IMG/VR virus record: IMGVR_UViG_3300045988_177007
Span: 1-35,064 of that record
DNA length: 35,064 nt
Source: a virus
Reading direction: 5' to 3' (one strand)
The notes beneath the pieces were generated by a model. That model saw nothing but the letters and a program-made list of their open reading frames with translations. It was not told where the DNA came from and made no database searches. Numbering within the stretch: the first letter of the stretch is position 1; each line of letters starts with the position of its first letter. Below are positions 2,240 to 24,178 of this stretch, in pieces. Both the position numbers and the translations under genes were made by a program.

Positions 2240-4876
2240 ATGGCGGTCAACGTAGGCTCGGCGTCCGTGACGATCATGCCGACCATGAGCGGCTTCGCCG
2301 CGAAGATGGACAAGCAGCTGGGCGGCGCGGGCAAGACGGGCGGCGCGTCCTTCTCCAAGGCGTTCGGCGCGTCGGCGCAGCCGGGCACGGGCTTCCTGGG
2401 GAAGTTCCGTACCGCCGGCGGCAATGCCGGATCGGCCATGGGCGAGTCCGCGGGCAAGGGCATCAGCGCCAAGGGCGCGGCGATAGCCGGCGCCATGGGC
2501 GGCCTCGCCGCGTCCATCGGCTCGAAGCTCGTGGGCACCATCCAGGGCCTGATGGGCGAGATCACGGACGCCTCCGACTCGGCGCAGAAGTTCGCGAGCA
2601 CGCTGTCCTTCGCGGACATCGACGACTCGACGATCAAGGACCTGACGGCCTCCACGCAGGCCTACGCCGACGAGACGGTCTACGACCTCTCCGACATCCG
2701 CAACACCACGGCCCAGCTCGCGGCGAACGGCGTCGACAACTACGCGCAGCTCGCCGAGGCGGCGGGCAACCTGAACGCCGTCGCCGGCGGCAACGCCGAC
2801 ACCTTCAAGTCCGTGGCCATGGTCATGACCCAGACGGCGGGCGCGGGCAAGCTCACCACCGAGAACTGGAACCAGCTCTCCGACGCAATCCCGGGAGCCT
2901 CCGGCAAGCTCCAGGAGGCCCTGAAGGCCAACGGGGCCTACACGGGAAACTTCCGCGAGGCCTTGGAGAAGGGCCAAATCTCCGCCGAGGAGTTCAACAA
3001 GGCCGTGATGGACCTCGGCATGACCGACGCCGCCAAGCAGGCGGCGACCTCCACCGCGACCATCGAGGGCTCGATGGGCAACCTCGAGGCGGCGGGCGTC
3101 AAGGCCGGCATGGTCCTCACCGACGCCTTCAAGCCGCTCGTCACCGGCGGCATCAACGGCGTCTCCGAGACCATTGGCCAGGTGACCGACGGCGTCGTGC
3201 GGTTCTTCGGCGTGGCGCAGTCCAGCGGGTCGGTCCAACGGCTCGTCGACACGGTGGGCGCGCTCGGCGGCGCGGCGGGCAACATCCTCAGCGCGCTTGG
3301 TAGCCTCGCGCTCGCCGTGCTCGGCATCCAGCCCAGCGGCGACGCGGCAACCGACGCGGCCAACGGCCTGAAGGGCGCCCTCGACGCGGCCCAGCCGGTC
3401 ATCCAGGGCGTCTCCGACGCTACCGGGTGGCTAAAGGACCACGCAGCGGAGGCCGCGCCCACCGTCCAGGGGCTCGTCTTCGCCATCATGGCGATGCGTG
3501 TGGCCCAGGGCGTGGCGGGCTTCGTCTCCGCCTTCTCCGCCGCCGTCGGCAGCATGGCCATCGCCTCTCCCGCCGCGGCAGCCGGGACCACGGCGCTCGC
3601 GGGCGGCGAGACCGCCGCCGGAACCGCCGCAGGCGTCTCCGCCGCGCAGATGCTCGCCTTCGGCGCCGCCGTGCTCATGATTGGCGGAGGGGTCGCCCTC
3701 GCGTGCGCCGGCCTGCTCGCGCTCGCCAACGCCGCCGTCATGATCGCGTCGGCGGGACCCTCCGCCGCCGCCGGCATGGCCGCCATGGTAGGAACCGTGG
3801 CCCTGCTCGCCGTGGGCGCCGCCGCCCTCGGCCCCGCCCTCACGGCGGGCGCCGTCGGCATGGTGGCCTTCGGCGGGGCGGTCGCCCTCGTAGGCGCTGG
3901 GGTGCTCTTCGCGTCCGCCGGGCTGATGCTGCTCGGCGGGGCGCTCCCCGGAATCTCCGCCTACGGGGCGTCCGCAGCCGTCGGCGTCCTCGCGCTCGGC
4001 GCGTCGATGCTCGTGCTCGGCCCCGGCGCCCTCGTGGCCGCCGCAGGCGTCACGGCGCTCGGCGCGGGCGTGGCCGTGGCCGCCGCCGGCGTGGCGCTGC
4101 TCGCGGCGGGGACCGTGCTCCTCGGCAGCGGGCTCGCCCTCGTGGCGGCCTCGGTCGTGGTCGCGTCGGCGGGAATCGTCGCCATGGGCGCGGCCATGCC
4201 CATGGTCGCGTCCTCCGCGCCCGGCGCGGCGGCGGGGCTCGGCGCCCTCGCGGCGGCGGCCCTCGCGGCATCCCCGGGCCTGCTCGCGGCGGTGCCGGCC
4301 ATGAGCTCCTTCTCCTCCGCCTGCTCCACCGCGTCTTCCGCCTCCGCGCAGGCGCGCTCGGGAATCGACCAGGTCAAGTTCGCGAGCCAGTCCATGGCCA
4401 CGGCGGCGAAGTCCTCCTTCAGCGACTTCGCCAACTCGGCGAGGAGCGCGGCCTCGACCGCCTCCAACGCCATCATGGGAGCCTGCCGCCGGATGTCCGC
4501 CGAGGTCGGGTCGCTCAGGCTCACCCTGCCGCGCATCTCGGTCGGCGCTCTGCCGCACTTCTCCATGAGCGGAAGCTTCGACGCCCAGACCGGCTCCGTG
4601 CCGTCCGTGCACGTGAACTGGTACAAGACCGGCGGCGTCTTCTCGTCGCCGAGCGTCGTCGGCGTCGGCGAGGCCGGGCGCGAGGCCGTCGTGCCGCTCA
4701 AGCCGAGCGTGCTTCGCGGCATCGGCGAGGGCATCGAGGTGGAGCGAGGCGGCGACGGCGAGTCCGTCATCGCGTGGCTCGACCGCAACCTCCCCGCGAT
4801 CATCCAGAGGTACACCCCGGTCACGCTCGAGCGCGATCTCGACCGACACATCAGGACGGTGATGGCAGGTGCATAG
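2240..4876 (+). CDS. Tail tape measure protein
   Basis: 878-aa ORF following G/GT. Long Ala/Gly-rich hydrophobic central region and helical ends. Size and position are typical. Confidence 0.85.
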   Translation: MAVNVGSASVTIMPTMSGFAAKMDKQLGGAGKTGGASFSKAFGASAQPGTGFLGKFRTAGGNAGSAMGESAGKGISAKGAAIAGAMGGLAASIGSKLVGTIQGLMGEITDASDSAQKFASTLSFADIDDSTIKDLTASTQAYADETVYDLSDIRNTTAQLAANGVDNYAQLAEAAGNLNAVAGGNADTFKSVAMVMTQTAGAGKLTTENWNQLSDAIPGASGKLQEALKANGAYTGNFREALEKGQISAEEFNKAVMDLGMTDAAKQAATSTATIEGSMGNLEAAGVKAGMVLTDAFKPLVTGGINGVSETIGQVTDGVVRFFGVAQSSGSVQRLVDTVGALGGAAGNILSALGSLALAVLGIQPSGDAATDAANGLKGALDAAQPVIQGVSDATGWLKDHAAEAAPTVQGLVFAIMAMRVAQGVAGFVSAFSAAVGSMAIASPAAAAGTTALAGGETAAGTAAGVSAAQMLAFGAAVLMIGGGVALACAGLLALANAAVMIASAGPSAAAGMAAMVGTVALLAVGAAALGPALTAGAVGMVAFGGAVALVGAGVLFASAGLMLLGGALPGISAYGASAAVGVLALGASMLVLGPGALVAAAGVTALGAGVAVAAAGVALLAAGTVLLGSGLALVAASVVVASAGIVAMGAAMPMVASSAPGAAAGLGALAAAALAASPGLLAAVPAMSSFSSACSTASSASAQARSGIDQVKFASQSMATAAKSSFSDFANSARSAASTASNAIMGACRRMSAEVGSLRLTLPRISVGALPHFSMSGSFDAQTGSVPSVHVNWYKTGGVFSSPSVVGVGEAGREAVVPLKPSVLRGIGEGIEVERGGDGESVIAWLDRNLPAIIQRYTPVTLERDLDRHIRTVMAGA

Positions 4877-5708: not shown

Positions 5709-6685
5709 TGGCGGACAGCGCGGGCAAGACCCTCTTCCCGCTCGCGGACTTCGAGCTGGACATGGACTCGGGCTGGGGCGACGGCGTCGACAACACGTTC
5801 GACTTGATCGTGCGCGACGCCTCCGCCCCGCTCCCGGAGGCCGCGTGGCGCGTCTACGCAGACGGCACGGAGATGGGCGGGCGCGTCGAGGGCTTCGAGC
5901 TGAAGACCGGCCGCACGTCCTCCGAGCTTCACTGGACCGGCTCCACATGGTCTGGCGTGCTCGCAAAGCGCCTGCTCTGGCCGGACTCGGGGCAGGACTA
6001 CCTCACGCTGTCGGGCGACGCCAACGCCGTGCTTCGCTCGGCCGTGGCCCGGCTCGGGCTCAGGTCCTTCTTCACCGTGCCCGACGGCGACGCGGGCGTC
6101 TCCGTGAGCTACAGGTGCTCGAGAGACATGCCGGATGCCTGGACGAACCTCCGGCTCGCCATGAGGTCTGCCGGGCTGCGCCTCGACGCGAGGTGGATAG
6201 ACGGAGCGTGTAGGCTCCAGGCGGCCAAGGTGACCGACTGGCGCGGCCGCGTCGACTCCGACCTCGTGGACTTCGACCTTACGAGCGACCTGCTCGTCAC
6301 GAACCATCTCAAGGCGGCGGGCAAGGGCGAGCTGGCGTCCCGCCAGGTCGTGGACGTCTACGCCGACAACAAAGGCAACGTCGGCACGTCAAAGGCCATG
6401 GCCGGCGTCTTCGAGCTCGAGGAGTACTACGACGCGAACAACTCCGAGGGCGACGACCTGCGAGACCAGGCCGTGAGCCGCCTGAAGGATATGCAGACGG
6501 AGGGCGGCGTCAAGGTCACCGTCGGCGAGGGCGTGAGCTTCGGCCTCGGCGACGTCGTGGAGGCCAGGCACTACTCTCCGAACGTCACGATCAGCGTCGA
6601 GATCTCCAGCCGCGTCACCACCGCCACCGGCGCGGGCGTCGCGGTCACCTACGGGGCCTCGCCCGGAACGACGAAGATAGGATAG
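5696..6685 (+). CDS. Tail-associated protein (Tal / baseplate-hub-like, short form)
   Basis: ATG at 5696, in frame with the tail of the long ORF 4967..6685. The upstream part of that ORF is a GC-frame artefact overlapping Dit. 329 aa. Follows Dit. Confidence 0.5.
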   Translation: MELIVADSAGKTLFPLADFELDMDSGWGDGVDNTFDLIVRDASAPLPEAAWRVYADGTEMGGRVEGFELKTGRTSSELHWTGSTWSGVLAKRLLWPDSGQDYLTLSGDANAVLRSAVARLGLRSFFTVPDGDAGVSVSYRCSRDMPDAWTNLRLAMRSAGLRLDARWIDGACRLQAAKVTDWRGRVDSDLVDFDLTSDLLVTNHLKAAGKGELASRQVVDVYADNKGNVGTSKAMAGVFELEEYYDANNSEGDDLRDQAVSRLKDMQTEGGVKVTVGEGVSFGLGDVVEARHYSPNVTISVEISSRVTTATGAGVAVTYGASPGTTKIG

Positions 6686-6694
6686 GAGCATCAC

Positions 6695-7570
6695 ATGGAA
6701 CTGGTAACCGGCAAGGCGGGCACCCCGCACGTCAGCTCCGCCGACGACGGACGCCGCATCGCGGGCGAGGTCGGCGCGGGCAGCTACGTCCTGAAGACGG
6801 GCGGCGGGCTCGCGCCTTCGCTCGTGGACGCGAACACCATCCGCTTCGCCACGGGCGACATTGTCGTGCAGGGCCGCCACATCGGCCTCACGGCGCCCGA
6901 GGACGTGAAGGTGGCGTCCGGCACGCAGGGCAAGAAGCGCACCGACTACATCTGCGTGCATTACAAGCGCGACGTCTCCGGCGCCAACCCGACGCTCGTC
7001 GAGACCTGCGAGTGGAAGGTGCTGCAAGGCACGCCGGGCACCGACGCCGCTGCGCCGGCGGTGCCCGCCGGGTCAATCCTCGACGGCGACGCCGAAGCGA
7101 CGGTGCCCGTCGCGAGCGTCGACTTCGACGGCCTGACCACGGGCGAGCCTAAGCTGCTCATCCCGACGCTCACGCCACTCGCGGACCTTGGGGATTCCGT
7201 ATCCCAGAGCGAGCCCGTGGTGCTGTTCAACAACTGGAGCAACGCCATAAACGCCGGGGCCACGCTCGCCGAGCCGATAAACAACTTCTCCCGCGTGACG
7301 TTTTCGTTTCGCACTAACGACGGCTTTCTGGCTCCGGATGTCACCGTGTTCTATCCCAGAGGGGATGTAACGAACATAGTCGCAAACGCTATCTACAGCC
7401 GTCCCGACGGCAATTTGTACATCAAGACGAGGGGCTTCACCGTCCGGGGCACGAAGGTCGAGACATCGCGCGACGGCGTGGCGTACTCCATAGCCGAGCA
7501 CAACTTGACCACGGGCGAGACCAAGCATATCGATGTGATCACCGTCGTGCGCGTTATGGGGTGGCGCTAG
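6695..7570 (+). CDS. Tail fibre / receptor-binding protein. Currently expressed form of a shufflon-like variable C-terminus
   Basis: 291-aa ORF with GGATAGGAG RBS. Contains the crossover-site core at 7194-7205, encoding LGDSVSQ. The C-terminal ~120 aa share the DGN..G..T / LTY pattern with the silent cassettes A and C. Confidence 0.65.
   Translation: MELVTGKAGTPHVSSADDGRRIAGEVGAGSYVLKTGGGLAPSLVDANTIRFATGDIVVQGRHIGLTAPEDVKVASGTQGKKRTDYICVHYKRDVSGANPTLVETCEWKVLQGTPGTDAAAPAVPAGSILDGDAEATVPVASVDFDGLTTGEPKLLIPTLTPLADLGDSVSQSEPVVLFNNWSNAINAGATLAEPINNFSRVTFSFRTNDGFLAPDVTVFYPRGDVTNIVANAIYSRPDGNLYIKTRGFTVRGTKVETSRDGVAYSIAEHNLTTGETKHIDVITVVRVMGWR
7194..7205 (+). repeat. Shufflon-like crossover site 1 (core ATTCCGTATCCC) inside the tail-fibre gene, coding orientation
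   Basis: The identical 12-mer occurs as reverse complement at 7884-7895, 8195-8206 and 8507-8518. Flanked by short inverted arms GGGAT / ATCCC. Confidence 0.7.
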
Positions 7571-7883
7571 ACACTGTACGTGAGCGTAGCGCCCCAATAT
7601 GTCGTGTCGATCACCTCGCCGGAAGAGCCTACGTTGTGGAAGCCGACGTTTCCGTCCGTCCCAACGTAGAACACGAGCTTGACGTTGCCGTTGACGTACG
7701 CGAGCTGGCGGACGTCATGGGAAGGCCTCAACTCGGCGGGCATCGTTCCGAGCCTCACGTACGCGTTTGGGTTGCCGGAGAAGAAGCCGGGGATGAGGCG
7801 TGTGTAGCTCACGGTGACGACCCGCCCGGCTCTCCATGCGGTGAGGTTCGTGTCCAAGTTGCCGAGGTTGATAAAGCCCTTCC
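7567..7883 (-). other. Silent tail-fibre C-terminal cassette A (107 aa downstream of crossover site 2)
   Basis: Minus-strand frame reads NSVSR-KGFINLGNLDTN...GTDGNVGFHNVGSSGEVIDTTYWGATLTYSV. The end is homologous to cassette C and to the RBP C-terminus. Its stop is convergent with the RBP stop at a shared CTAG (7567-7570). Confidence 0.6.
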
Positions 7884-7895
7884 GGGATACGGAAT
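7884..7895 (-). repeat. Crossover site 2 (GGGATACGGAAT on plus = ATTCCGTATCCC on minus)
   Basis: Exact 12-bp core. In frame it encodes N-S-V-S-R at the head of cassette A. Confidence 0.7.
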
Positions 7896-7898
7896 TCC

Positions 7899-8194
7899 TT
7901 ACTGCTCGCTGAGTACTAACATCCAATTTGCACGGAAGACGTGAGGGTTGGTGTTCGTGAAACGAAGTCGAATCTGCTTTCTAGCCGCATCAAATTCCGC
8001 GATTGCCGGCTCCATCACGTTGACCGAGTCACCACTACAGATAAAGCAGAATAAGTTTCCCACCCCCGTGTCCTCAACGCGGAAGTCGGAGACAGAGCAG
8101 CCAAGATACTGGGCCGCAGTCTCGAAGCTCATTAAGTCCCAGAAGTAGTTGTTGCCTTTATGTACGACAACCGACCCACAGGCAACCTTGCGCC
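7899..8194 (-). other. Silent tail-fibre C-terminal cassette B (98 aa after crossover site 3). Divergent, low-GC module
   Basis: Minus-strand frame reads (TAG)-QHSVSR-RKVACGSVVVHKGNNYFWDL...VLSEQ. Local GC is roughly 50% against ~66% background. Only a short Met-initiated ORF (7899..8132) is annotatable on its own. Confidence 0.5.
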
Positions 8195-8206
8195 GGGATA
8201 CGGAAT
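8195..8206 (-). repeat. Crossover site 3
   Basis: Exact 12-bp core. Lies 2 codons after the stop of cassette C, in the same frame. Confidence 0.7.
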
Positions 8207-8210
8207 GCTG

Positions 8211-8506
8211 CTAGGTCGTATACGTAAGCGAGATGTCGACGAGAGCCCACGTCGCCGAGTCGCCGCCCCAGCGGTGGATGACGTTTATCGACCCGTCCGT
8301 GTTGATCGAGACGATGCCCCACGTCGACCCTTGTACGCCGAAGAGCGCGCGGACGGGCACGGCTGGCCTGAAGCCTGCTTTAACGGAGCCGACCTTCGTG
8401 TCTTCGGTCTTCGTGAGCACGTCCTCGCCGAAAACGTGTACCGTCACGCTGCCGCCGCGGGCCGCGCCCTCGACGTGGAGGCCGTCGAAGACCTGCGTCT
8501 CAACCG
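8211..8506 (-). other. Silent tail-fibre C-terminal cassette C (about 98 aa after crossover site 4)
   Basis: Minus frame reads GVGHSVS-PVETQVFDGLHVEG...SINTDGSINVIHRWGGDSATWALVDISLTYTT. Homologous to cassette A and the RBP C-terminus. The upstream part of ORF 8211..8696 is an Arg-rich artefact overlapping the recombinase gene. Confidence 0.6.
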
Positions 8507-8518
8507 GGGATACGGAAT
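8507..8518 (-). repeat. Crossover site 4
   Basis: Exact 12-bp core, 3 nt from the 3' end of the recombinase gene. Confidence 0.7.
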
Positions 8519-8521
8519 GCC

Positions 8522-9388
8522 CTACGCCGCCATCGCCTCGGCGTAGACGCTGCTCGCGCGGGCCACGACGGTCCGGAAACTCTGCAGGTAGTGCCCCATG
8601 GCCGTGTTGACGGTCGTGTGCCCGAGCGCGACGGCTATGTCCTCGATGGCCGCGCCGTGCTCCAGCGCGATCGTGGCCCACGAGTGGCGAAGGCACGTCA
8701 TCGGCACATGAGGCAGTCCTGAGCGGCGGCAGAAGGCGGCGAAGCGGCGGGCCACGGCGTCAGGCGAGAGGGCGCACAGGCGTCCGGAGCGGCGGCTCCC
8801 GCGAATCGCCCGCAGGCGCTCTAAGGCGAAGCGGGGGAGCTTCAGGCGGCGGTCCGACAGCTTGGTCTTGCATCCCGTCTCCACCTCGCGCCCGCGCACC
8901 ACATGGAGGCCGCGCGAGACGTGCACCCAGCCGCTTCGCCAGTCCACGTCCTCGATTCTCACGGCGCAGGCCTCGCACCTGCGCAACCCGAGGGCTGCGC
9001 CGAGCAGCACGGCAGCCTCGAAGGACTGGCCGACGATGCCGCGCAGCGTCTCGCGCTCCTGCGGGGCCGTGAGCACCGGGCGGCGGACGGTTGGCTTGCG
9101 CGGCAGCTCAACGCCCTGCGTCACGTCCCAGATGCGCAGCTGTCGGCGGCGCAGCACCCAGCGGTACACCTGCCGGAAGGTCTTGTAAGCCTTCTCGGCG
9201 GCGCCGGGGCGCTCGAAGCCGTCCACCCATGCCTGGAGCTCGTCGAAGGTGACGGACTCAACCTCGCGCGCTCCCCACGCGGGCAGGACGTGGCAGCGGA
9301 GGGCCGACTCGTAGCCCTCCAGGGTGGTGGCCCGCAGGCGCTTTCGCTTGTCGGCCATGTACTCGGCGGCGGCATCACGGAACTGCAT
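8522..9388 (-). CDS. Small tyrosine recombinase. Candidate shufflon invertase (Rci-like role) rather than an integrase
   Basis: 288 aa with no long N-terminal arm-binding region. Tyrosine-recombinase boxes are readable: ...CLRHSWATIALEHG... and ...LGHTTVNTAMGHYL... It abuts crossover site 4. Confidence 0.65.
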   Translation of the reverse strand: MQFRDAAAEYMADKRKRLRATTLEGYESALRCHVLPAWGAREVESVTFDELQAWVDGFERPGAAEKAYKTFRQVYRWVLRRRQLRIWDVTQGVELPRKPTVRRPVLTAPQERETLRGIVGQSFEAAVLLGAALGLRRCEACAVRIEDVDWRSGWVHVSRGLHVVRGREVETGCKTKLSDRRLKLPRFALERLRAIRGSRRSGRLCALSPDAVARRFAAFCRRSGLPHVPMTCLRHSWATIALEHGAAIEDIAVALGHTTVNTAMGHYLQSFRTVVARASSVYAEAMAA

Positions 9389-9407
9389 TTTTGACCTCGA
9401 TTCAATC

Positions 9408-9461
9408 GGAAATCCCAGACGTCGGCGCAGGCGGATCCTGCCCCTATGCCTGGGATTTTCC
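9408..9461. promoter_or_regulatory. Inverted repeat GGAAATCCCAG ... CTGGGATTTTCC in the recombinase / CBM-gene intergenic region
   Basis: Arms are 10/11 complementary with a 31-bp spacer. They share ATCCCAGA with the flank of crossover site 1. Candidate recombinase binding or autoregulation site. Confidence 0.3.
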
Positions 9462-9481
9462 CCGAGAGAAAGGAGTCACGC

Positions 9482-9889
9482 ATGGCTTTGAGGGGAGTCT
9501 CGGTCGGGCCCTCAATCCGGCTCGCCACGGACGGCGGTGGAAAGCTCGTCGCGGAGACGGACCCGCCCGAGGTGCCCGAGGGATTCGTGGCCACCTACAC
9601 GCTGGTCGACACGGGCGAGCGCATCGAGCAGGTCTGGAGCGTGGCGCCGAGGTCGCGCGGCGAGGACTCGCTCGCGGTGGCCAAGATGGCCGCGCGTGGG
9701 CTGCCGGACTCCGACGCGGTGCGCGTCCCGCTGCTCTTCGGCGCCTGGTACGTCGGCGTGGCCGAGTACGCGGCGGGGGAGCGAGTGGAGCGGGGCGGCA
9801 GGCTCTACCGCTGCCTGCAGACGCACCAGCCGAGGCTGGGCACCGAGCCGGAGGCCACGGCCTCGCTCTGGGAGAGAATCGAAGGATAA
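9482..9889 (+). CDS. Carbohydrate-binding (CBM5/12-like) domain protein, tail-associated
   Basis: ATG at 9482 with AAAGGAG RBS; the longer ORF starting at 9446 is unlikely. Motif Y-AAGERVERGGRLYRCLQTHQP...LWERI fits the YxxGxxVxxxGxxYxC.Q.H....W pattern of CBM5/12. Confidence 0.5.
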   Translation: MALRGVSVGPSIRLATDGGGKLVAETDPPEVPEGFVATYTLVDTGERIEQVWSVAPRSRGEDSLAVAKMAARGLPDSDAVRVPLLFGAWYVGVAEYAAGERVERGGRLYRCLQTHQPRLGTEPEATASLWERIEG

Positions 9890-9898
9890 GGAGTACAC

Positions 9899-10477
9899 AT
9901 GTTCTACGGACAGTTCGTGAGCGGAGCCGTCTACCTCACCACCGACGGCAGTGGTCTGCCCATCCGCGAGGCCGCTGAGCCGACGCCTGGGGCGGGCTAC
10001 CACACCTCTCTCACCTATGAGCAGCACGACGGGGCCATCTGGCAGGTCTGGGCGCTCGTGCCGGACGCGGGCACCGCCCAGGACGCGGCCCTCATGCTTG
10101 CGCAGATTCAGGCGTCGAAGCTCAGCGACACCGACGCGCTGCGCGTGCCCGCGCTCTTTCCGCGCTACGAGAAGGGCCACGTCTACGCTCAGGGCGACCG
10201 AATTCTGCATCAAGGCGTGCTCTACAAGGCCATAAGCGGGCACACGGCCACCGCCGAGGAACCGACCTCAGACCCGCAGCACTGGGCGAAGGTCGTGCCC
10301 GCCTCCACCGGCGAGGCCGTTGCCGAGTGGGTCAGCGGAAAGACCTACGCCAAGGGCGACCGTGTGACCAAGTACGGGCAGGTCTACGAGTCGACCATGG
10401 ACGCCAACACGCTGGAGCCGGGCAGCTTCGGCAGCGACGGCGCCTGGACGCTCGTGACCGCGTCCGCCACCGCCTAG
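9899..10477 (+). CDS. Carbohydrate-binding (2x CBM5/12-like) protein, paralogue of 9482..9889
   Basis: 192 aa with GGAG RBS. Two copies of the Y.(G)D.(V/I)...G..Y......(W) motif. Central region aligns with the preceding gene. Confidence 0.5.
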   Translation: MFYGQFVSGAVYLTTDGSGLPIREAAEPTPGAGYHTSLTYEQHDGAIWQVWALVPDAGTAQDAALMLAQIQASKLSDTDALRVPALFPRYEKGHVYAQGDRILHQGVLYKAISGHTATAEEPTSDPQHWAKVVPASTGEAVAEWVSGKTYAKGDRVTKYGQVYESTMDANTLEPGSFGSDGAWTLVTASATA

Positions 10478-11100: not shown

Positions 11101-11361
11101 GTGAGGCCCGCTAGGCGCCGCCGCCTCGCGCGGGCGTGCCGCCTCATGGTCGCCGTGGTGGTGGCCGAGGCGGCCGCCCTCGCGCCGCTCGTGACCGCTT
11201 CGCAGCCTGCGGGCAAGCCCGCGTGGAGACCGGGTAAGGCGATCGTCTCCGACAGGGCATACGAGCCGCCCATGAGGCTCGTCGTGGAGCCGGACACGGG
11301 GCAGACCTACACGGTCGCCGAGTCCGGCTCCGTCCATTTGATAAGGGAAGGCGACAGATGA
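11101..11361 (+). CDS. Small secreted protein (signal peptide). Possible lysis accessory
   Basis: GTG start. N-terminal RRRRLARACRLMVAVVVAEAAALAPLVTA is signal-like. Start choice is uncertain. Confidence 0.3.
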   Translation: MRPARRRRLARACRLMVAVVVAEAAALAPLVTASQPAGKPAWRPGKAIVSDRAYEPPMRLVVEPDTGQTYTVAESGSVHLIREGDR

Positions 11362-12167
11362 TGCCAAGCATCGACAAGCTCTGCGAGCGCATGCGCTACT
11401 GGTGCGACGAGGGCAATTTAGGCTACTGCCAGGAGCACCGCCAGGACATCCGTGTGGGCGGCGAGGCGGACTGTTCCTCGCTCGTCATCCATTGCCTGAA
11501 GGAAGCCGGTTTCGACACCGGTTCCGCGAGCTATACCGGCAACATGAGCGCCAATCTCTGTGCCCGAGGGTGGAGGCGCGTCGCAAACAACGGCAACCCG
11601 CAGCGCGGCGACATTCTGCTCAACGACGCGCACCACGTGGCCGTGTACGTCGGCGGGGGCCTCCTCTGCCAGGCGAGCCGCAACGAGCTCCACCGAGCCA
11701 ACGGCGGCAGACCGGGAGACCAGGACAACTACGAGACGAACACCCGCAGCTACTACAACTACCCGTGGTCCTGCTACTTGCGCTACGCGGGCGCGCAGGG
11801 CACGTCGCCCGCGCAGCTCGTCGTCGACGGCTATTGGGGCCGGGAGACCACGCTTCGCCTGCAGGAGCTCTTCGGCTGCCCGTACAAGGACGGGGTCATC
11901 TCCTCCCAGTGGGCGGGCGACGCATGGCGCCACGCGGCCTGCACGAGCTTCGAGCACGACAACTCCGGCGAGGGCTCGGTGACCATCGTGCGCCTGCAGC
12001 AGCATATCGGTGTGACCGCCGACGGCCTCTGCGGCAAGGACACGATCAACGCGCTCATCAAGCGCTTCATGTCGTCCTCCGGCGCGACCGTCCTGGACGG
12101 AAAGCTCGACGCCGCCTCCGTCACCGTCAAGGCCATGCAGCGCGCGATAAACGATGGGCGGCTCTGA
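11358..12167 (+). CDS. Endolysin: NlpC/P60- or CHAP-like cysteine peptidase domain plus two peptidoglycan-binding repeats
   Basis: 269 aa. Cys...His pattern DCSSLVIHCL...GDILLNDAHHVAVYVGGG. Two DG.WG..T...L...FG / DGLCGKDTINALIKRF repeats resemble PG_binding_1. Confidence 0.75.
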   Translation: MMPSIDKLCERMRYWCDEGNLGYCQEHRQDIRVGGEADCSSLVIHCLKEAGFDTGSASYTGNMSANLCARGWRRVANNGNPQRGDILLNDAHHVAVYVGGGLLCQASRNELHRANGGRPGDQDNYETNTRSYYNYPWSCYLRYAGAQGTSPAQLVVDGYWGRETTLRLQELFGCPYKDGVISSQWAGDAWRHAACTSFEHDNSGEGSVTIVRLQQHIGVTADGLCGKDTINALIKRFMSSSGATVLDGKLDAASVTVKAMQRAINDGRL

Positions 12168-12558: not shown

Positions 12559-13671
12559 TCACGACTTTGCAGCGCGGTATCGCGCGTAGGCCTCGGCGAC
12601 GGCTTCGACGAACACGTCTCGCTCTGGCCGATCGTAATGAATCTCCCCGACGCTTTTCCCCGCGTGGCCCATCATCTTCTCGCACATGTCCTCGGGCACC
12701 TTCAGCTCCCAGCGCATGAACGTTCGCCAAGAGTTGCGAAGGTTCTGCAAGGGTATGTAGCTCAGCCCGGCGGAATCCAGCGCGCGCTTCCAAGCCCTTC
12801 CCGCCGCAGCCTGACCCATTGGCGACCCGTCGCCCCGGTCGCACAGCCACGACGCGCTGACCGCGAGAACGTCTTCGCTCCACGGCTCCGGGACTACCAC
12901 CCAACGCTCGCTCCGGCTGGTCTTTAGCGTGTCGAAAACTTCTCCGCTCCTGTTCACCTGACGCTCGATGCGCACGGCGGCGAGCGCCTGCCCGTGCGAC
13001 TCGACGCGCACGACGTCTGTTGCCTTCGCTCCTAAAGCCTCTCCGATCCTGCAGGAGGCCGTTCCGCACAGCACTGCAGGCAAGTAGACCGGCGTCCCTT
13101 TGATGGCCTCGAGAACAGACGTGAGGGCTTCGAGCGTGTACACGTCCTTCAGCCTCTCGCGGGCCGGGGTTCTCGGCATGCGGTAACGTGCAGAACACGG
13201 GTTCGATTTCGCAACCTCGTACCTGACGCACATGTCCAGCAACTGCGACAGCAGCTGCAGCGACCTCTGCGCGCTCGACGGCGCGAGCGTGAGCAGCCAT
13301 TCCTGCACCTGCAGCGGCTTCACGTCGGTAACCGGCACGTCAGCCCAGCGCGGAATGATGCGCGAGTTCCACATCGACCTGTACATCCGCTCCGTGTTTG
13401 CCGACACCTCGCCCTTGCTGAGCCTGTCCTCGAAGTCCGGGAGCCACCACATCTCGTATGCCTGCCGCACGGTCGGCGCAGGCGCGTCGCTTGAATGCTC
13501 CACCCGGCGCCGTGCGAGCACGTCGTCGGCGTCCTTGCGGGTGCCGCGCACCGTCTCGGAGACGCGGCGGTACCCCTTGCCGTCGTGGAGGTCGGCCCAG
13601 TAGCGGATGCGGCGCTTCCCGCGCCCGGCGTCCTCGTTGCTGCCCCACGACGACCTGCGCTTCTTAGGCAT
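12559..13671 (-). CDS. int: Tyrosine integrase
   Basis: 370 aa. Catalytic boxes ...RNSWRTFM... and ...MMGHAGKSVGEIHYDRP... Adjacent to the CI/Cro switch and to a low-GC att-like region. Confidence 0.8.
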   Translation of the reverse strand: MPKKRRSSWGSNEDAGRGKRRIRYWADLHDGKGYRRVSETVRGTRKDADDVLARRRVEHSSDAPAPTVRQAYEMWWLPDFEDRLSKGEVSANTERMYRSMWNSRIIPRWADVPVTDVKPLQVQEWLLTLAPSSAQRSLQLLSQLLDMCVRYEVAKSNPCSARYRMPRTPARERLKDVYTLEALTSVLEAIKGTPVYLPAVLCGTASCRIGEALGAKATDVVRVESHGQALAAVRIERQVNRSGEVFDTLKTSRSERWVVVPEPWSEDVLAVSASWLCDRGDGSPMGQAAAGRAWKRALDSAGLSYIPLQNLRNSWRTFMRWELKVPEDMCEKMMGHAGKSVGEIHYDRPERDVFVEAVAEAYARYRAAKS

Positions 13672-13760: not shown

Positions 13761-14264
13761 TTACTTACTTTCTTGCTCGAACAGCGTTCGAACGATGCTC
13801 GCGCGACGTTCGCGGAGCCTCATCGGCCGCCTAGCGCCCCTCCGGGGCGGAGTCATGGACGGACCCCCCCCCCCAGACACTTTTTCGGGGGCAGGCGGGA
13901 GCCTCTCGGCCAGTTCATCCGAATTAAGCCCTTGGGGATAGGTCGCGACGAGCCCTGCCACCACGTTCTCCGCAATCTCGCGGCCCTCTTCGGACAGCGC
14001 GGCGTAGGCCGACATGAGACGTGAGCCGCACTGAGGCGCGGTGGATGTCTCCTCGCGCGGGTGTGTGGCGTACCAGTCGCAGAGGTCGTTAGGAGTGCAG
14101 CCGAAAACTACGGAAATCTCGTAGGCATCTTCCAGCGTGAGGGCAACTTCCTCACGCTCGAGGGAGGCGTAGCGCCGTTCCTTCATCCCTAAGGCCTTTG
14201 CTGCCTCTGATTGGGACTTGTACCCGGCACTTTTACGACATGCCTTCAACGAGAGTTTGAACAT
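13761..14264 (-). CDS. CI-like repressor (XRE-family HTH)
   Basis: ATG with GGAGGAG RBS at 14264; the ORF is open to 14303. HTH reads MFKLSLKACRKSAGYKSQSEAAKALGMKERRYASLE. Divergent from the Cro-like gene. An 11-G run lies in its coding strand at 13864-13874. Confidence 0.7.
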   Translation of the reverse strand: MFKLSLKACRKSAGYKSQSEAAKALGMKERRYASLEREEVALTLEDAYEISVVFGCTPNDLCDWYATHPREETSTAPQCGSRLMSAYAALSEEGREIAENVVAGLVATYPQGLNSDELAERLPPAPEKVSGGGGPSMTPPRRGARRPMRLRERRASIVRTLFEQESK

Positions 14265-14291
14265 ATCTCCTCCTTCTGTTGTCGAAAATTC

Positions 14292-14400
14292 TACGTGATT
14301 CACGTATTAATGGCAAAGATTTTTGCAATTCTCTCTTGACGCAACGCGAATCACGTTGATACTATGAAATGCAACGCGAATCACGTTGATATATGAGAAG
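14292..14400. promoter_or_regulatory. Divergent promoter/operator region of the lysogeny switch
   Basis: Palindrome TACGTGA-T-TCACGTA at 14292-14306. Two 21-bp direct repeats GCAACGCGAATCACGTTGATA at 14341-14361 and 14371-14391, each with CAACG..CGTTG arms. Candidate rightward promoter: TTGACG (14336-14341), 17-18 bp, TACTAT. Confidence 0.5.
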
Positions 14401-20521: not shown

Positions 20522-20791
20522 ATGACTACGACGAGTGACGCCCGCGAGACCGTCCGCGACCCCAGCTGGTACACGTCCGGCGCCGTGGAGACCATCGCGA
20601 AGATAGAGGCCGTCATCGACGGGCTGCCCGCGCGAGAGGCCTTCCTGCTCGGGCAGGTCATACGCTACGTCGACCGAGCCGGGGAGAAGGACGACCCGGC
20701 CCTGGACCTCGGCAAGGCGAACAACTACGCATGGCGACTGGTCACGGGCGATTGGAGGTGCGATGGCGGGGGCGAGCGTCTACCAAGGTAA
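20522..20791 (+). CDS. DUF3310-family phage protein
   Basis: PSWYTSG..ETI..IEAVI....FLLGQVIRYVDRAG.K......L.KA..Y matches the recalled DUF3310 signature. Confidence 0.5.
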   Translation: MTTTSDARETVRDPSWYTSGAVETIAKIEAVIDGLPAREAFLLGQVIRYVDRAGEKDDPALDLGKANNYAWRLVTGDWRCDGGGERLPR

Positions 20792-21869
20792 GGACGGCGT
20801 CTGGCGCGCCAGGGTCATCTTCCCGGCCGACCCCGCCACCGGCCGCCGCGCCCGCAAGGTCAAGGCCTTCCCAGGGGCGAGGGACGCCGAGGAGGCCCGC
20901 GCCATGGCCGAGGCCTACGCCGCCGGGGCGTCCGGCGCGTCCATCCAGGGCGCGCTCGCGCGCTACGCCGAGGAGGTCGCCGAGAAGGGGGCCGCGGGGC
21001 GCGCGCCCAAGGCCAACACGGCGCACGACTACCTGGGCTACGCCCGCCGCCTGGGCGAGGTCTTCCCCGCCGTGCCGGCCTGCGAGGTCACGCCCGGCAT
21101 GGTCTCGTCGGTGGAGTCGCAGCTCCTCTCGCGCGGGCTCTCGGCCACGACCGTCAACGGCTACCACCAGTTCATGAGCGGGGCCTTCTCGTGGATGGCC
21201 CGCCAGGGCTGGGTTCGCTCCAACCCGGCCGCGGACGCGATCCACCCGAGCGCCGGCAACCCCGACGCCTCCGGCAAGGCCCTCGACGAGGAGGAGCTGC
21301 GCGCGCTCACGCTTCGGCTGAGGGCCGACGAGCCGGAGGCCGGCGACTTCGGCGAGTGGCAGTGCGCCATGACGGCGCTCGACCTCATCGCCTGCACGGG
21401 GATGCGCCTGGGCGAGGTGCTCGCCCTGCGCGTGCGGGACCTCCGCCCCCAGGTGCCCGACGTCTACGTCTGCGGCACCGTCTGCGAGCGCGGCGGCCTC
21501 TTCCGCCAGCCCACGGCCAAGAGAGGGGAGGACAGGCGCCTGGCGGTGCCGACGCGCATCGTGCCGACCCTGCGCCTCATGGCCGCCGGCAAGCGGCCGG
21601 ACGACGCGCTCCTCTCGCCGGACGGCGCGATCGTGCGGCCCGCGGTCGTCCGGCAGGCCCTGCGCGCGGCGTGCCAGGAGGCCGGCGTGCGGCGCATAAC
21701 GCCCCACGCGCTCAGGCACACTCACGCCACGCTCGCCCTGCAGCGCGGCTTCACCATCGCCGACGTCCAGGCGAGGCTCGGCCACGCCGACGTGAAGACC
21801 ACGCTCGGCATTTACGGGCACACGACCGCCGCCCGCGACAGGGGCATCGCGGAGTCCTTCGGCGGGTAA
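20763..21869 (+). CDS. Second tyrosine integrase
   Basis: 368 aa. ...HALRHTHATLAL... and ...LGHADVKTTLGIYGHT... boxes. Lies in the early plus-strand region and is followed by a low-GC, mosaic island. Confidence 0.75.
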   Translation: MAGASVYQGKDGVWRARVIFPADPATGRRARKVKAFPGARDAEEARAMAEAYAAGASGASIQGALARYAEEVAEKGAAGRAPKANTAHDYLGYARRLGEVFPAVPACEVTPGMVSSVESQLLSRGLSATTVNGYHQFMSGAFSWMARQGWVRSNPAADAIHPSAGNPDASGKALDEEELRALTLRLRADEPEAGDFGEWQCAMTALDLIACTGMRLGEVLALRVRDLRPQVPDVYVCGTVCERGGLFRQPTAKRGEDRRLAVPTRIVPTLRLMAAGKRPDDALLSPDGAIVRPAVVRQALRAACQEAGVRRITPHALRHTHATLALQRGFTIADVQARLGHADVKTTLGIYGHTTAARDRGIAESFGG

Positions 21870-22067
21870 GGTTGGCGCCGGGGCGGCGAGGACCACGGCA
21901 GGACCACGGATGGCTTCCCGGCGCGGCGCCGCCCGGGCAGCGTTCCCGCTGGTCGCGCGGCCCGCCGCCCCTCTTTCCGCCCACGCCCCCGACGGACAAC
22001 GCCTAATTGTCCGATTTAAGTGGTATTGGTTAAGAGAGTTATGCAAGTTAGGTAGATTGGAGGCTTC

Positions 22068-22223
22068 ATGGCATACGAGGAAGAGCCGCCGAGTACGTTG
22101 GAGCTGCTAAGCATTCCGTTTCTGCTGCTTCTCGTCTTCGTGCTCGTGCTCTACGCGCCCTTTTGGGCAATCGACAAACTGCGCGAGAAGTGGAGAGAGC
22201 GCAGAAAGACAAACCGCAGGTAG
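22068..22223 (+). CDS. 51-aa single-TM membrane peptide
   Basis: GATTGGAGG RBS. FLLLLVFVLVLYAPFW hydrophobic core. Low-GC patch. Confidence 0.35.
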   Translation: MAYEEEPPSTLELLSIPFLLLLVFVLVLYAPFWAIDKLREKWRERRKTNRR

Positions 22224-22264
22224 AATAGTACGGGACGGATTCTCACCACGGGGATTGGAGACTG

Positions 22265-22756
22265 ATGCAAGCACGCGACTTCTTCGCATCGGTGCGCGCC
22301 GCGGCCGACGAGGCCGAGCGGACGAGGAGCCAGATAGAGCGCATGGAGGCGGCGGAGGGCGTGCGCGCGCAGGGGTACACCCCGGGCGTCTCCAGATCTA
22401 GGGCCGACGTCAACGGGACCGCCCGCGTCATCTCCCGCGTCGACTACGAGCGCAGGATGCGCAGGCGGCTCGAGGAGGACTACGCACTCATCGACCGCGG
22501 GTGCTCCGTGATCTACGGCAGCGACCAGACGGGCATGGGCGGCGTGGACGCGCTGCTGGGCTCCGCGACCGCCGACACGATGTGGTGGCGCTTCTGCGAC
22601 GGCGCGGGCTGGACTAAAGTGGCCCGCGAGGTCGGGCATTCCGAGAGCTGGTGCAGGCTCGCGGTCGAAACGGCGCTCGACGTGTGCGACCAGTACGGCA
22701 TGGACGCGATGACGCAAGGCCTCGGCATCGCCGAGGACAGGCCCGAGTCTTTCTAG
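22265..22756 (+). CDS. Hypothetical protein. Possible late-gene transcriptional activator by position
   Basis: 163 aa. Last gene of the early region before the packaging module. C-terminal helical region could be DNA-binding. Speculative. Confidence 0.3.
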   Translation: MQARDFFASVRAAADEAERTRSQIERMEAAEGVRAQGYTPGVSRSRADVNGTARVISRVDYERRMRRRLEEDYALIDRGCSVIYGSDQTGMGGVDALLGSATADTMWWRFCDGAGWTKVAREVGHSESWCRLAVETALDVCDQYGMDAMTQGLGIAEDRPESF

Positions 22757-22758
22757 GA

Positions 22759-22792
22759 GAGCCCCGACGCATCGAGCGCCGGGGCTTTTTTT
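22759..22792 (+). terminator. Rho-independent terminator
   Basis: GAGCCCCG..CGC-loop-GCG..CGGGGCT followed by TTTTTTT. Confidence 0.6.
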
Positions 22793-22812
22793 GTGGCTCT
22801 GTTAGACCAACA

Positions 22813-22844
22813 TTGACATATAGGTGATGCCACGGTGGTATAAT
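22813..22844 (+). promoter_or_regulatory. Extended -10 promoter (TGGTATAAT) in front of the transposase gene
   Basis: TGgTATAAT at 22836-22844. A TTGACA hexamer lies at 22813-22818 but 20 bp upstream, a non-canonical spacing. A 6-bp hairpin GCCGTA-AGCTC-TACGGC lies between the -10 and the RBS. Confidence 0.4.
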
Positions 22845-22873
22845 AGCCGTAAGCTCTACGGCATTGGAGTATC

Positions 22874-23929
22874 ATGAACGCCGAAGACCTGGTCATCATC
22901 TTCAAAAAGAACATGGCGAACCTCAGCAAAACCGAGCGCCGCCGCGCAATCGAATCCGTCAGGGACGTGATACGCGCGGCGATGTTCGATGATGCGGCCG
23001 GCTCCACCTATGAAGTCGAATGCTGCCCGCGCTGCGGGTCCATCGCGATCGTGAAGAAGGGCAAATCAAAGAACGGCGAGCAGCGCTACCTTTGCCGGGA
23101 CTGCGGCAGGACCTTCGGTATGGGCAGCGAGCGCATCCTGGGGACGAGCAAGCTCCCGAAGGAGACATGGATGGCCTATGCCGAGTGCTTCGTTCTCATG
23201 CTGCCCCTGCGCGAATGCGCGAGGCGCTGCCATGTCTGTCTCAAGACCGCCTACACCATGCGCCACAGGCTGATCGAGTGCCTCTCGGCCTACTCGCCCT
23301 CGTTTAAGGTCGAGCGGGGTTGCGGCTGCGAGCTCGACGAGACCTATTTCCCCGAGTCGTTCAAGGGCAACCACACGAAGGGGTCGTTCACGATGCCGCG
23401 ACCCTCCCGGCATCGCGGCAAGCAGGTGCACAAGCGCGGCCTGTCGCGCGAGCAGATTTGCGTCATGACCGGCGTGAACGACTCGAACGAGACGTTTTTC
23501 GAGGTCTCGGGGCGGGGCGTCCTGTCGAGGAAACGCGCCATGGATGTGCTGAGAGGCCGCATCATGTCCGGTTCCGTCGTGGCGACGGACAAGGCGTCCG
23601 CCTATGTCGACGTCCTCGCCGAGCTCGAGGTCGCCGCGCACACGGCCTACGATTCCAAGGACCGCTCTGAGGGGACCATCAACCGGATCAACACCGTCCA
23701 TTCGCTCCTTGGTGCCTTCATGGAGCCGTTCAGGGGCGTGTCGACGAAGCACCTCGCTGCCTACCTCGCCTGGTTCAAGTGGTGCCGGACCTTCATGGCG
23801 GCCGATTCCGGCACTGCCGAGCGCGCGGTCGCGCGGCAGCTCGCGAACGGCGTATGCAGGAGCCGTATCCGCGACATGTTCAACGTCCTGCCGCCCTATA
23901 TGGACTACTGGGTCACATCCGCCGCATAG
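22874..23929 (+). CDS. IS1595-family transposase (N-terminal zinc ribbon + DDE domain)
   Basis: 351 aa. CPRCGS...[10 protein letters not shown] zinc ribbon, then a DDE-type core. Inverted repeats could not be delimited by eye. Confidence 0.65.
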
Positions 23930-23975
23930 AGAAGATAAAATGGTTGCACCGTGATATACGAGGAGAGGTACAACC

Positions 23976-24161
23976 ATGCCGTCGAACATACCTGCCACGA
24001 CGATACGTATCGAACCGGAGGTCAAAAAAGAGGCCACGGCCATCCTTGACGAGCTCGGCTTGTCCATGTCCACCGCCGTCAATGCATTCCTCAAGGCGCT
24101 CGTCCGCGAGGGCGGCATGCCGTTCGAGATGAAGGTCACACCGAGGAAGGGCGAGGAGTAA
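23976..24161 (+). CDS. RelB/DinJ-family antitoxin (orphan; no toxin gene follows)
   Basis: 61 aa. TIRIEPEVKKEATAILDELGLSMSTAVNAFLKALVREGGMPFEM matches the DinJ pattern. Only a 12-codon ORF follows the TAACCATG junction. Confidence 0.65.
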   Translation: MPSNIPATTIRIEPEVKKEATAILDELGLSMSTAVNAFLKALVREGGMPFEMKVTPRKGEE

Positions 24162-24178
24162 CCATGACGTCGCAGGTC

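Follow-up and report, generated by a model that had tools for sequence, protein, structure and literature searches.

The window, by which we mean the whole 35,064-nucleotide stretch of viral DNA analysed here, very probably carries a Rin-type shufflon in the complete genome (~34.9 kb) of a temperate gut siphovirus of Coriobacteriia (Olsenella/Parolsenella/Collinsella-like hosts). Its closest genome matches were Olsenella, Parolsenella and Collinsella, not Eggerthella. The locus is of a kind already named and described, and the system is not new: Rin shufflons are known from the Bifidobacterium breve/longum prophages Bb423phi1, Bl157phi1 and Bl30698phi1 (Mavrich et al. 2018, PMC6109161) and from clade 1 prophages of Eggerthella lenta, whose rix site is 'ttccgtat' (2022, PMC8778435). 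The window contains the same set of parts, namely a homologous constant region (Rc) of the receptor-binding protein (RBP), three start-less variable heads (Rv, the type calling for two or more of ~95–125 aa), related rix sites and a separate, armless recombinase, and rix-bounded inversions are found among its relatives. A first-pass annotation of this DNA had proposed a multi-inversion switch giving the tail-fibre gene alternative C-termini, a proposal supported by the core-bounded recombinants in relatives and the fusion proteins in databases that we describe below. The features of the locus, in window coordinates, are:

6695..7570, plus strand: RBP gene as now arranged, Rc-Rv0, 291 aa
6695..7193, plus strand: Rc, the constant N-terminal shoulder, 166 codons
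7194-7205, plus strand: rix site 1, the putative crossover core within the expressed RBP gene, encoding D-SVS
7206..7570, plus strand: Rv0, the head expressed now, 121 codons past the core, then the stop
7567..7883, minus strand: silent cassette A, 109 aa from NSVS, reading 7896->7570, tail-to-tail with Rv0
7884-7895, minus strand: rix site 2, with the TAA stop of cassette B in its 5' flank
7899..8194, minus strand: silent cassette B, 102 aa from HSVS, reading 8207->7902, GC 0.53
8195-8206, minus strand: rix site 3, with the TAG stop of cassette C in its 5' flank
8211..8506, minus strand: silent cassette C, 102 aa from HSVS, reading 8519->8214
8507-8518, minus strand: rix site 4, separated from the stop codon of rin by 3 nt
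8522..9388, minus strand: rin, Xer-like tyrosine recombinase and presumed invertase, 288 aa, TAG stop at 8522-8524

The exact 12-bp core ATTCCGTATCCC occurs four times in 35 kb, once on the plus strand and three times inverted, with no further exact copy, against a chance expectation of ~0.004 for any one 12-mer (70 kb, both strands). This confirmed the coordinates and frames of the first-pass annotation, which had placed one in-frame copy in the tail-fibre gene and three copies in opposite orientation. Read in frame, site 1 is GAT TCC GTA TCC, or DSVS, and supplies residues 167–170 of the ORF at 6695–7570; the constant part, earlier put at ~170 aa, is corrected to 166 aa plus DSVS. The inverted cores are in frame as well, beginning with AAT in cassette A (NSVS) and with CAT in cassettes B and C (HSVS), and no stop interrupts any of the three cassettes between its core and its own stop codon. 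These cassettes, called promoterless in the first-pass annotation, follow the recombinase gene on its strand, and none has an in-frame start codon at the 5' end; consensus scans of 6500–9600 for promoters and terminators found none. The tight packing of the locus was borne out too: the stop of cassette B (TAA, 7899–7901) lies 3 nt off site 2, that of cassette C (TAG, 8211–8213) lies 4 nt off site 3, and a CTAG at 7567–7570 is common to the stops of the fibre gene and cassette A.

The context of site 1, CTTGGGGATTCCGTATCCC, forms the dyad GGGA-TTCCGTA-TCCC, and cleavage would be expected to flank a ~7-bp overlap, the TTCCGTA between GGGA and TCCC. The first codon of the core encodes D in every expressed, Rc-linked copy and mostly H or N (in a few cases D) in silent copies, which fits strand exchange inside the core. 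Conservation extends over only ~12–16 bp per site, the sequence logo being flat 3' of CCC; this is short for a tyrosine-recombinase site and counts against the Rin-shufflon reading, as does the finding that sites 2–4 are direct repeats with nothing visible to block deletion between them. Selection on the core is at the level of DNA and not of protein, since the identical core was found in phages of 42–66% GC retrieved by protein similarity alone and is absent from Rc homologues without cassettes, which have GDTL, GDVL or GDSL at the core position and no repeat. Its three synonymous third positions are invariant across genomes of 37–71% GC. These observations bear on a different account, in which the cassettes would be a mosaic arising when co-infecting phages recombine homologously or illegitimately, the 12-mer would be a motif coding for a linker, and the recombinase would be used otherwise (dimer resolution or a second integration). 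Although a D-S-[VLM]-[ST] linker motif is common in this RBP family, and head types are common to phages with very different constant regions, we consider such an origin highly improbable: RecA-type exchange needs far more than 12 bp, the motif is kept in silent cassettes where there is no N-terminal domain to link, and both the fixed third positions and the missing motif in cassette-less homologues speak against it. Relatives moreover differ by inversions that have the cores as boundaries, and all complete loci examined have a Rin homologue along with their array of sites.

Under a Rin-type shufflon, the recombinase would pair the core in the RBP gene (7194–7205) with any of the inverted cores (7884, 8195 or 8507), and strand exchange within the identical 12 bp would flip the DNA between the paired cores. 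With the in-frame D-S-V-S core placed in the linker between shoulder and head, an inversion would join the 166-aa shoulder to a new head, the predicted products being Rc+Rv0 (291 aa), Rc+A (275 aa), Rc+B (268 aa) and Rc+C (268 aa). The replaced head would be stored as a silent cassette, and cassette order would be reshuffled by subsequent inversions at any two oppositely oriented sites. The heads probably differ in receptor specificity, and the likely benefit is that receptor or host-strain specificity is switched within the phage population.

Several relatives carry natural recombinants of the locus. A prophage 91–97% identical to the window (L020), with a Rin protein 96% identical, loses synteny with it exactly at the cores, where the flanks are hybrid. 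Window positions 8195–8522 (cassette C) correspond to L020 7823–7496, inverted and joined to Rc (97%), and window positions 7884–8208 (cassette B) adjoin rin in the prophage. Its rin-proximal site combines the left flank of window site 4, CGTAGGGC, with the right flank of window site 3, GGCGCAAG, exactly what two inversions would yield. Another pair, L004 and L009, is 96.9% identical over 6.5 kb, diverges right at a core and is then inverted for ~500 bp; what L004 carries as a silent cassette (HSVSQTQ...), L009 expresses as its head (DSVSQTQ..., 99%). Judged from these alignments, the two are inversion isomers. The same cassette family is also found in opposite orientations in L005 and L007. 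Proteins in databases correspond to the predicted fusions: P0077 (268 aa) consists of Rc (94.6%) and cassette C (98%), as does P0075 (Rc 95%, C 92%), while Rc::B fusions are represented by P0072 (269 aa, B part 79%), P0080 (268 aa, 81%) and P0001/L018, and P0083 is a fusion of Rc with an A-type head. The B-type head also occurs on a short unrelated N-terminus in phages of 42–43% GC (P0003, P0005). Metagenomic contigs of many relatives end inside the shufflon, one of them 4 nt past a core (L008), a pattern attributable to assembler behaviour at heterogeneous inversions.

The constant and variable parts of the RBP have separate distributions. Rc is 85–94% identical in nine close relatives with unrelated C-termini, and 99 of 120 listed homologues share Rc and have none of the window's four C-termini. 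The predicted fold of the RBP best matches the receptor-binding protein of lactococcal phage 1358, a match also reported for the Bifidobacterium protein. In the predicted structure, pLDDT drops to 66 at residues 161–170, consistent with the core region acting as an inter-domain linker. Rv0 shares 30% identity with the heads that L003 and L006 express and 90% with that of P0082, a protein whose Rc is only 37% identical; cassette A is 45% identical to the expressed heads of L001 and P0083. The first-pass annotation had regarded cassettes A and C and the current C-terminus as mutually homologous. For A and C this stood (BLASTP 29% over 65 aa; hhalign probability 57%, E 1e-4), whereas no similarity of Rv0 to either was detected (hhalign probability <1%), and the C-terminal end of Rv0 is VMGWR rather than the LTY that had been read there. 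The low GC ascribed to cassette B was correct (0.53, vs 0.71 in the constant region and 0.72 in the recombinase gene). A Pfam search of the four heads found no domain, H-type lectin included.

As first annotated, 3 nt separate site 4 from the end of the gene for a 288-aa tyrosine recombinase; the ORF (8522–9388) contains the Pfam domain Phage_integrase and, apart from that, only an N-terminal SAM-like domain. The best PDB sequence match of Rin is XerA (4a8e), and its best named relatives are XerA and XerC/D. The protein has no arm-binding domain, the ~75-aa N-terminal extension of the integrase being missing. R136, K174, R234, H257 and Y267 are invariant; counting against the reading, the HxxR box of the Rin family departs from the canonical form in lacking its first His (T231 in the window). 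Full-length Rin homologues lie ~12–70 nt from the outermost rix in L002, L005, L020 and L025; L024 has one as well, with ~1.3 kb between it and the closest site detected, and L010 has a rin fragment only. Rin is presumed to be the catalyst of the inversions. The searchable literature yielded no experiment demonstrating Rin catalysis or host-range change. That the small recombinase might instead be the chromosomal integrase was a worry raised at the outset; it is answered by a separate 370-aa integrase with an N-terminal extension, encoded at 12559–13671 beside the repressor, and we rejected this role for Rin. A third tyrosine recombinase is encoded at 20763–21869, for a window total of three, and one could suppose that the 370-aa integrase, this third recombinase or a host enzyme inverts the DNA in trans and that Rin is merely adjacent. 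A second bifidophage inversion locus without a flanking recombinase (Mavrich et al., PMC6109161) would agree with such an arrangement. Only Rin, however, co-occurs with rix arrays where the other genes differ, including in 39% GC phages of 70–130 kb, and we regard inversion in trans as the least probable of the explanations considered here, with next to no weight.

We compared the Rin-type locus of the window with its described counterparts. Like the Bifidobacterium system, it runs from Rc through rix and several start-less Rv of ~100 aa to an armless tyrosine invertase, with a lambda-like Int elsewhere. Rc measures 168 aa in Bifidobacterium vs 166 aa plus DSVS in the window. Compared with Bifidobacterium phage PMBT6 and with loci carrying published rix, identity is 36–41% for Rc and 38–42% for Rin; of 60 loci bearing the published Bifidobacterium rix, 48 have a recombinase 39–42% identical to Rin, and in summary the identity to such loci is about 39% for Rin and about 36% for Rc. 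The B. breve rix matches the window core at 9 of 11 positions (TTCCCTAACCC vs TTCCGTATCCC), and the rix shared by PMBT6 and ctl617, TTCCGTAACCC, is intermediate in form between the two. The window differs from Bifidobacterium in host class (Coriobacteriia, not Bifidobacteriales), in its GC of 66%, in its conserved core of 12 bp, and in having Rv0 and A tail-to-tail, with CTAG in common, within one invertible segment. Inversion is evidenced at read level for Bb423phi1, whereas the window phage is known from assemblies. The E. lenta system, compared by description, is alike in host class (Coriobacteriia), GC (~67%), similar genome size and a Rin distinct from Int, and its rix is the same sequence as positions 2–9 of the window core; an H-type lectin has been reported for its heads, in contrast to the window heads without any Pfam domain.

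In the R64/IncI shufflon, the tyrosine recombinase Rci acts at several asymmetric sfx sites, each a 7-bp spacer with a conserved 12-bp right arm, and inversions join a constant N-terminus to alternative C-termini of pilV, an adhesin of the conjugative plasmid; some segments hold two opposed C-terminal cassettes. The first-pass annotation had likened the window to this system. The likeness holds in logic only, the opposed cassette pair matching the Rv0/A arrangement, while the window sites differ and are shorter and a phage RBP takes the place of the pilus adhesin. Queried with Rin by tblastn, a collection of 72,556 plasmids gave 26 records passing E ≤ 1e-3, from Clostridioides, Bacillus, Streptomyces and comparable hosts; none of the 15 plasmid matches listed was annotated as a shufflon recombinase, and the organism groups shown included no enterobacterial genus. 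From this search, and with XerA and XerC/D as best named relatives, we did not assign Rin to the Rci family. Gin of Mu, Cin of P1 and Min of p15B, the last of which is a multi-segment shufflon too, are enhancer- and Fis-dependent serine (resolvase) invertases that swap the C-terminus of a phage tail fibre. The purpose is the same, but the window enzyme belongs to the tyrosine family (Phage_integrase) and the ORFs scanned were all free of resolvase domains, ruling out a serine-invertase switch in agreement with the first annotation. A diversity-generating retroelement was also rightly excluded there: no reverse-transcriptase domain was found in the 18 large ORFs scanned, and the repeats are of 12 bp, not ~100-bp TR/VR.

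Switching is probably ongoing in the window phage itself. We consider it unlikely that the shufflon is instead locked or fossil, that is, a once-active module in which switching no longer occurs or is too rare and the cassettes are inert. In keeping with that possibility, and counting against an active switch, the window and two further, independent assemblies of the same phage (L021 and L022; 99.98% identical) share a single arrangement; samples in which the phage occurs include SRR3993059 and ERZ27272200. Decay is evident among relatives: rin is missing from L003, which has a single site, and is reduced to its first ~98 codons in L006. An exact scan of viral and metagenome contigs for the Rc flank plus core, GACCTTGGGGATTCCGTATCCC, gave 0 matches, so no alternative junction of the exact phage was recovered. 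Likewise, blastn of 6600–9500 against 50,697 deposited phages returned no match, and a related-locus search of viral contigs with cassettes B and C returned nothing. The uniform orientation is, however, weak evidence, since consensus assemblies give the majority orientation only. The rin ORF of the window is intact and keeps every invariant catalytic residue, the four cores are perfect, and the silent cassettes are open, with like heads expressed elsewhere (A 45%; B and C 79–98%).

Beyond this phage, the chances seem to us evenly balanced that Rin/rix is a portable head-swapping module, not peculiar to Bifidobacterium/Eggerthella prophages. The identical core ATTCCGTATCCC was found with a Rin homologue (40–85% identical) in phages of 37–71% GC and 35–130 kb, some loci having rix arrays of up to 12 sites. 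It is joined to at least three unrelated constant regions: the 166-aa RBP shoulder, a short N-terminus of 48–56 aa, and a 260-aa fibre-like protein whose gene lies near the tail-tube gene. Related head families recur across lineages bearing Rin/rix. If the module is portable, rix would be a universal docking joint, with heads exchanged horizontally and shuffled within a genome. What is new is that the Rin system now reaches Olsenella/Collinsella-type Coriobacteriia and that phages of 37–71% GC and up to 130 kb have the core in common.

The 2018 paper left the question of how a tyrosine recombinase lacking an arm-binding domain comes to invert DNA in preference to deleting it (PMC6109161). The relatives described here supply natural isomers whose breakpoints are placed to the base, which makes this question testable on sites of ~12–16 conserved bp. 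One invariant core, spread so widely, suggests that a single recombinase/site pair may be usable as a modular tool for swapping RBPs. Shufflons bear on host-range prediction, on the inference of phage–host networks and on the quality of gut virome assemblies, the last because contigs often break at shufflon loci. For the phage itself, a shufflon would mean several receptor specificities from one temperate genome.

The 12-mer ATTCCGTATCCC, the crossover core (rix), occurs in exactly four copies in the 35-kb window, one on the plus strand and three inverted, as the first-pass annotation had recognized; the next-best matches lie elsewhere in the window with two mismatches each. All four copies are in frame. 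Site 1, GAT-TCC-GTA-TCC, encodes D167-S-V-S170 of the 291-aa protein formed by the constant 166-aa shoulder (Rc) and the current head (Rv0), and the inverted copies (AAT... or CAT...) open each of the three minus-strand frames, the silent head cassettes A, B and C, with NSVS or HSVS.

Features of the phage genome around the shufflon
2240-4876, tape measure, then Dit-like and minor tail genes
6695-7570, 291-aa ORF (Rc and Rv0), followed by the cassettes and recombinase
7194-7205, plus strand, rix site 1, exact 12-mer
7884-7895, minus strand, rix site 2, exact 12-mer
8195-8206, minus strand, rix site 3, exact 12-mer
8507-8518, minus strand, rix site 4, exact 12-mer
7896 to 7570, minus strand, cassette A, 109 aa, open from the core
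8207 to 7902, minus strand, cassette B, 102 aa, open from the core
8519 to 8214, minus strand, cassette C, 102 aa, open from the core
8522-9388, minus strand, 288-aa tyrosine recombinase (Rin)
11358-12167, endolysin, listed with two CBM_5_12 proteins and a holin, 3′ of the shufflon in gene order
12559-13671, minus strand, 370-aa integrase
13761-14303, minus strand, HTH repressor, then early genes
Portal, scaffold and capsid genes, last block in the gene order

The layout is as compact as had been described, with 3 nt between the cassette B stop and site 2, 4 nt between the cassette C stop and site 3, 3 nt between the recombinase stop and site 4, and a CTAG (7567-7570) common to the fibre gene and cassette A. 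The constant region and the recombinase gene have a GC content of 0.71-0.72 and the cassettes one of 0.53-0.66, with B, already noted as low, at the minimum of 0.53. The four sites have almost no sequence in common beyond the core. The cassette-site logo is tAG(c/g)A-TTCCGTA(T/A)CCC, in which the preceding cassette usually has its stop codon at TAG; conservation ends with CCC on the 3′ side. At the Rc site the sequence is CTCGGGGA-TTCCGTATCCC; its GGGA-TTCCGTA-TCCC is a 4-bp dyad flanking an asymmetric 7-bp centre, and the left half-site is degenerate in cassette sites. The centre may be the overlap region of strand exchange. In two related loci, cores are paired head-to-head 10-12 nt apart (L001, 7200-7233; L020, 8353-8388), with a short spacer from which two cassettes point outwards.

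The two ends of the window repeat each other directly over 141 bp (1-141 and 34924-35064), so the sequence is no prophage fragment; it is a whole genome of ~34,923 bp assembled as a circle (k=141). Because the 370-aa integrase, HTH repressor and early genes adjoin, the phage has its own integrase in a canonical lysogeny module, and the cassette-adjoining enzyme is an extra recombinase; the suggestion that it might be a chromosomal integrase falls to this separate integrase beside the repressor. Rin has SAM-like core-binding and catalytic domains only, without the integrase's N-terminal extension of ~75 residues, and XerA and XerC/D are its best relatives in PDB and NCBIfam. Its homologues all keep R136, K174, R234, H257 and Y267; T231 stands where HxxR would have its first His. 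A possible operator or regulatory hairpin for rin lies in the 58 nt that separate its start codon from the plus-strand gene that follows: an imperfect inverted repeat of 22 nt (9410-9458; 82% complementary, 5-nt loop). Immediately next to rin and ahead of the holin gene, the two consecutive small CBM_5_12 carbohydrate-binding-module proteins (9446-10477), kept in L020 and in two near-identical assemblies (L021, L022), may be tail accessories or lysis-associated. Elsewhere in the early region, a mobile or defence/anti-defence island may have been inserted at 20763-26580: a third tyrosine recombinase (368 aa, 20763-21869) is followed by an IS1595-like DDE transposase (22874-23929), an EcoRI-like adenine methyltransferase (24248-25414; Pfam E 1e-108) and a GmrSD_N+HNH endonuclease (25414-26580).

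These features are those of the Rin shufflon of Bifidobacterium, in which a 168-aa Rc, likened to the phage 1358 receptor-binding protein (RBP), is accompanied by cassettes of 95-100 aa, an 11-bp rix, TTCCCTAACCC, and a XerD-like tyrosine invertase without an arm-binding domain, and reads showed inversion variants (Mavrich et al., PMC6109161). Clade 1 prophages of Eggerthella lenta (67% GC) also have a Rin shufflon, with rix 'ttccgtat' (2022, PMC8778435). The window core contains this 8-mer and agrees with the Bifidobacterium rix at 9/11 positions; an intermediate, TTCCGTAACCC, occurs in Bifidobacterium phage PMBT6 (three sites) and Siphoviridae sp. ctl617 (seven sites), whose Rc and Rin are 40-41% and 38% identical to those of the window. 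Among 60 viral loci chosen solely by two copies of the published Bifidobacterium rix, a Rin homologue is encoded by 48 (median identity 39%) and an Rc homologue by 37 (36%). The window locus is a Rin shufflon, with the family's defining features in its Rc, cassettes, rix sites and recombinase and in the inversions among its relatives, and its target is an RBP. The feature is real, and its mechanism belongs to a system already described; our literature search found no paper linking shufflons to Olsenella or Collinsella phages. The likeness to R64/Rci holds as analogy, not relationship: tblastn of Rin against 72,556 plasmids (E <= 1e-3) matched 26 records, from Clostridioides, Bacillus, Streptomyces and similar hosts, with no shufflon-recombinase annotation among the 15 listed and no enterobacterial genus among the organism groups shown. 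The exclusion of other switches was sound, since Gin, Cin and Min are serine invertases and no reverse transcriptase was seen among the window ORFs scanned.

Close Rc homologues (84-94% identical) were found in an Olsenella MAG, Parolsenella catena, a dozen viral contigs, and assemblies labelled Collinsella aerofaciens and Olsenella uli. In every one of them that extends as far as the junction the 12-mer is unchanged, and they differ in rix number (1-7), orientation and spacing. Two contigs from the same metagenome, L004 and L009, are 96.9% identical across 6.5 kb and collinear until the core, beyond which ~500 bp are inverted; the expressed DSVSQTQ... head of L009 is the silent HSVSQTQ... cassette of L004 (99%). 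In L020, a prophage within a 2.3-Mb contig (Rin 96% identical), window cassette C with both bounding cores (8195-8522) is inverted and joined to Rc at 97% identity, cassette B neighbours rin, and the rin-proximal site combines the window's site-4 left flank (CGTAGGGC) with its site-3 right flank (GGCGCAAG), as would be expected of a site 1 by site 4 inversion followed by a second inversion. These two comparisons are decisive for recombination at the cores. The window, L021 and L022 have one common arrangement. Many relatives' metagenomic contigs stop within the shufflon (L008 4 nt past the core), the usual way in which assemblies break where inversions are heterogeneous. At the end of contig L019 (6001-7350), a second, inverted short constant region is joined to a different head (6943-7350, minus strand), apparently two shufflon states caught by the assembler.

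Among 120 listed homologues of the full 291-aa protein, several join Rc to window-type heads, the B and C fusions agreeing in length with the predicted 268 aa of both; none close to Rc+A (275 aa) was found.

Head fusions among database homologues (identity to window parts)
P0077, 268 aa, Rc 94.6%, C 98%
P0075, 268 aa, Rc 95%, C 92%
P0072, 269 aa, Rc 94%, B 79%
P0080, 268 aa, Rc 93%, B 81%
P0083, 272 aa, Rc 94%, A-type head (45% to A)
P0082, 290 aa, Rv0 90% on an Rc of only 37%

The first core residue is always D in Rc-linked, expressed copies and mostly H or N, with a few D, in silent ones, a pattern expected if exchange falls within the core. A and C, proposed to be homologous to each other and to the current C-terminus, are the only detectably related pair (hhalign probability 57%, E 1e-4); by BLASTP and hhalign among the four window heads, Rv0 and B show no relation to A/C or to each other. 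The head pool is large, since 99 of the 120 homologues carry heads unlike all four.

With inversions at cores in relatives and existing Rc+B and Rc+C fusions, the multi-inversion switch had been correctly understood, and the locus is very probably best explained by Rin-driven inversion at site 1 within the 12-bp core, giving alternative RBP heads. Rin would pair site 1 with one inverted site, and strand exchange inside the core would flip the segment, yielding four in-frame RBPs with a common shoulder. Catalysis by Rin, switching in this phage and head-specific receptors are presumed, as a proposal. The main rival, a shufflon that has become locked, has precedent in two decayed relatives, both locked on an Rv0-type head: L003 (Olsenella uli assembly, ~6500-7450) has one core and neither cassettes nor rin, and L006 (~6500-7450) has retained a second core, with rin cut down to its first ~98 codons. 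It is nevertheless improbable for the window, where rin, sites and cassettes are all intact.

The core itself reaches further. The 12-mer is unchanged in loci of differing base composition that were found purely by the resemblance of their proteins to heads B and C (L019 and L024, 42-43% GC; L025, 60% GC), and in the cassette-free Rc homologues L012, L014 and L015 the junction reads GDTL, GDVL or GDSL and the repeat is absent, which marks the core as a signal at the DNA level beyond a coding motif. Exact cores paired at cassette spacing were found in 33 viral stretches with GC contents of 37-71%; some of the contigs measure 115-130 kb, arrays hold as many as 12 sites, and a Rin homologue (40-85% identical) is usually present. 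The constant regions joined to the core are of at least three unrelated kinds: the RBP shoulder, a 48-56-aa N-terminus (P0003, L120) and a 260-aa fibre-like protein whose gene adjoins the tail-tube gene (P0013, L025). Large low-GC phages (IMG/VR contigs L091/L094, L093/L099, L096/L106, L098, L109 and L120; 70-130 kb, ~39% GC) have the identical core, a Rin homologue ~41% identical and up to 12 sites per locus, some with sites in two separately retrieved stretches; the L120 constant gene has just a 56-aa N-terminus ahead of TLRDSVS. The Rin shufflon of L025/L026 (6001-8897), which shares the core and has a Rin 53% identical, targets a 361-aa fibre-like protein encoded between the tail-tube gene and tape measure, outside the usual RBP position; the head that this protein expresses matches window cassette C at 73% identity. 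The spread of the core across GC contents, phage sizes and constant regions points to Rin/rix as a portable module whose heads would be drawn from a shared pool, a reading that, as far as we could find, goes beyond the two published descriptions of Rin.
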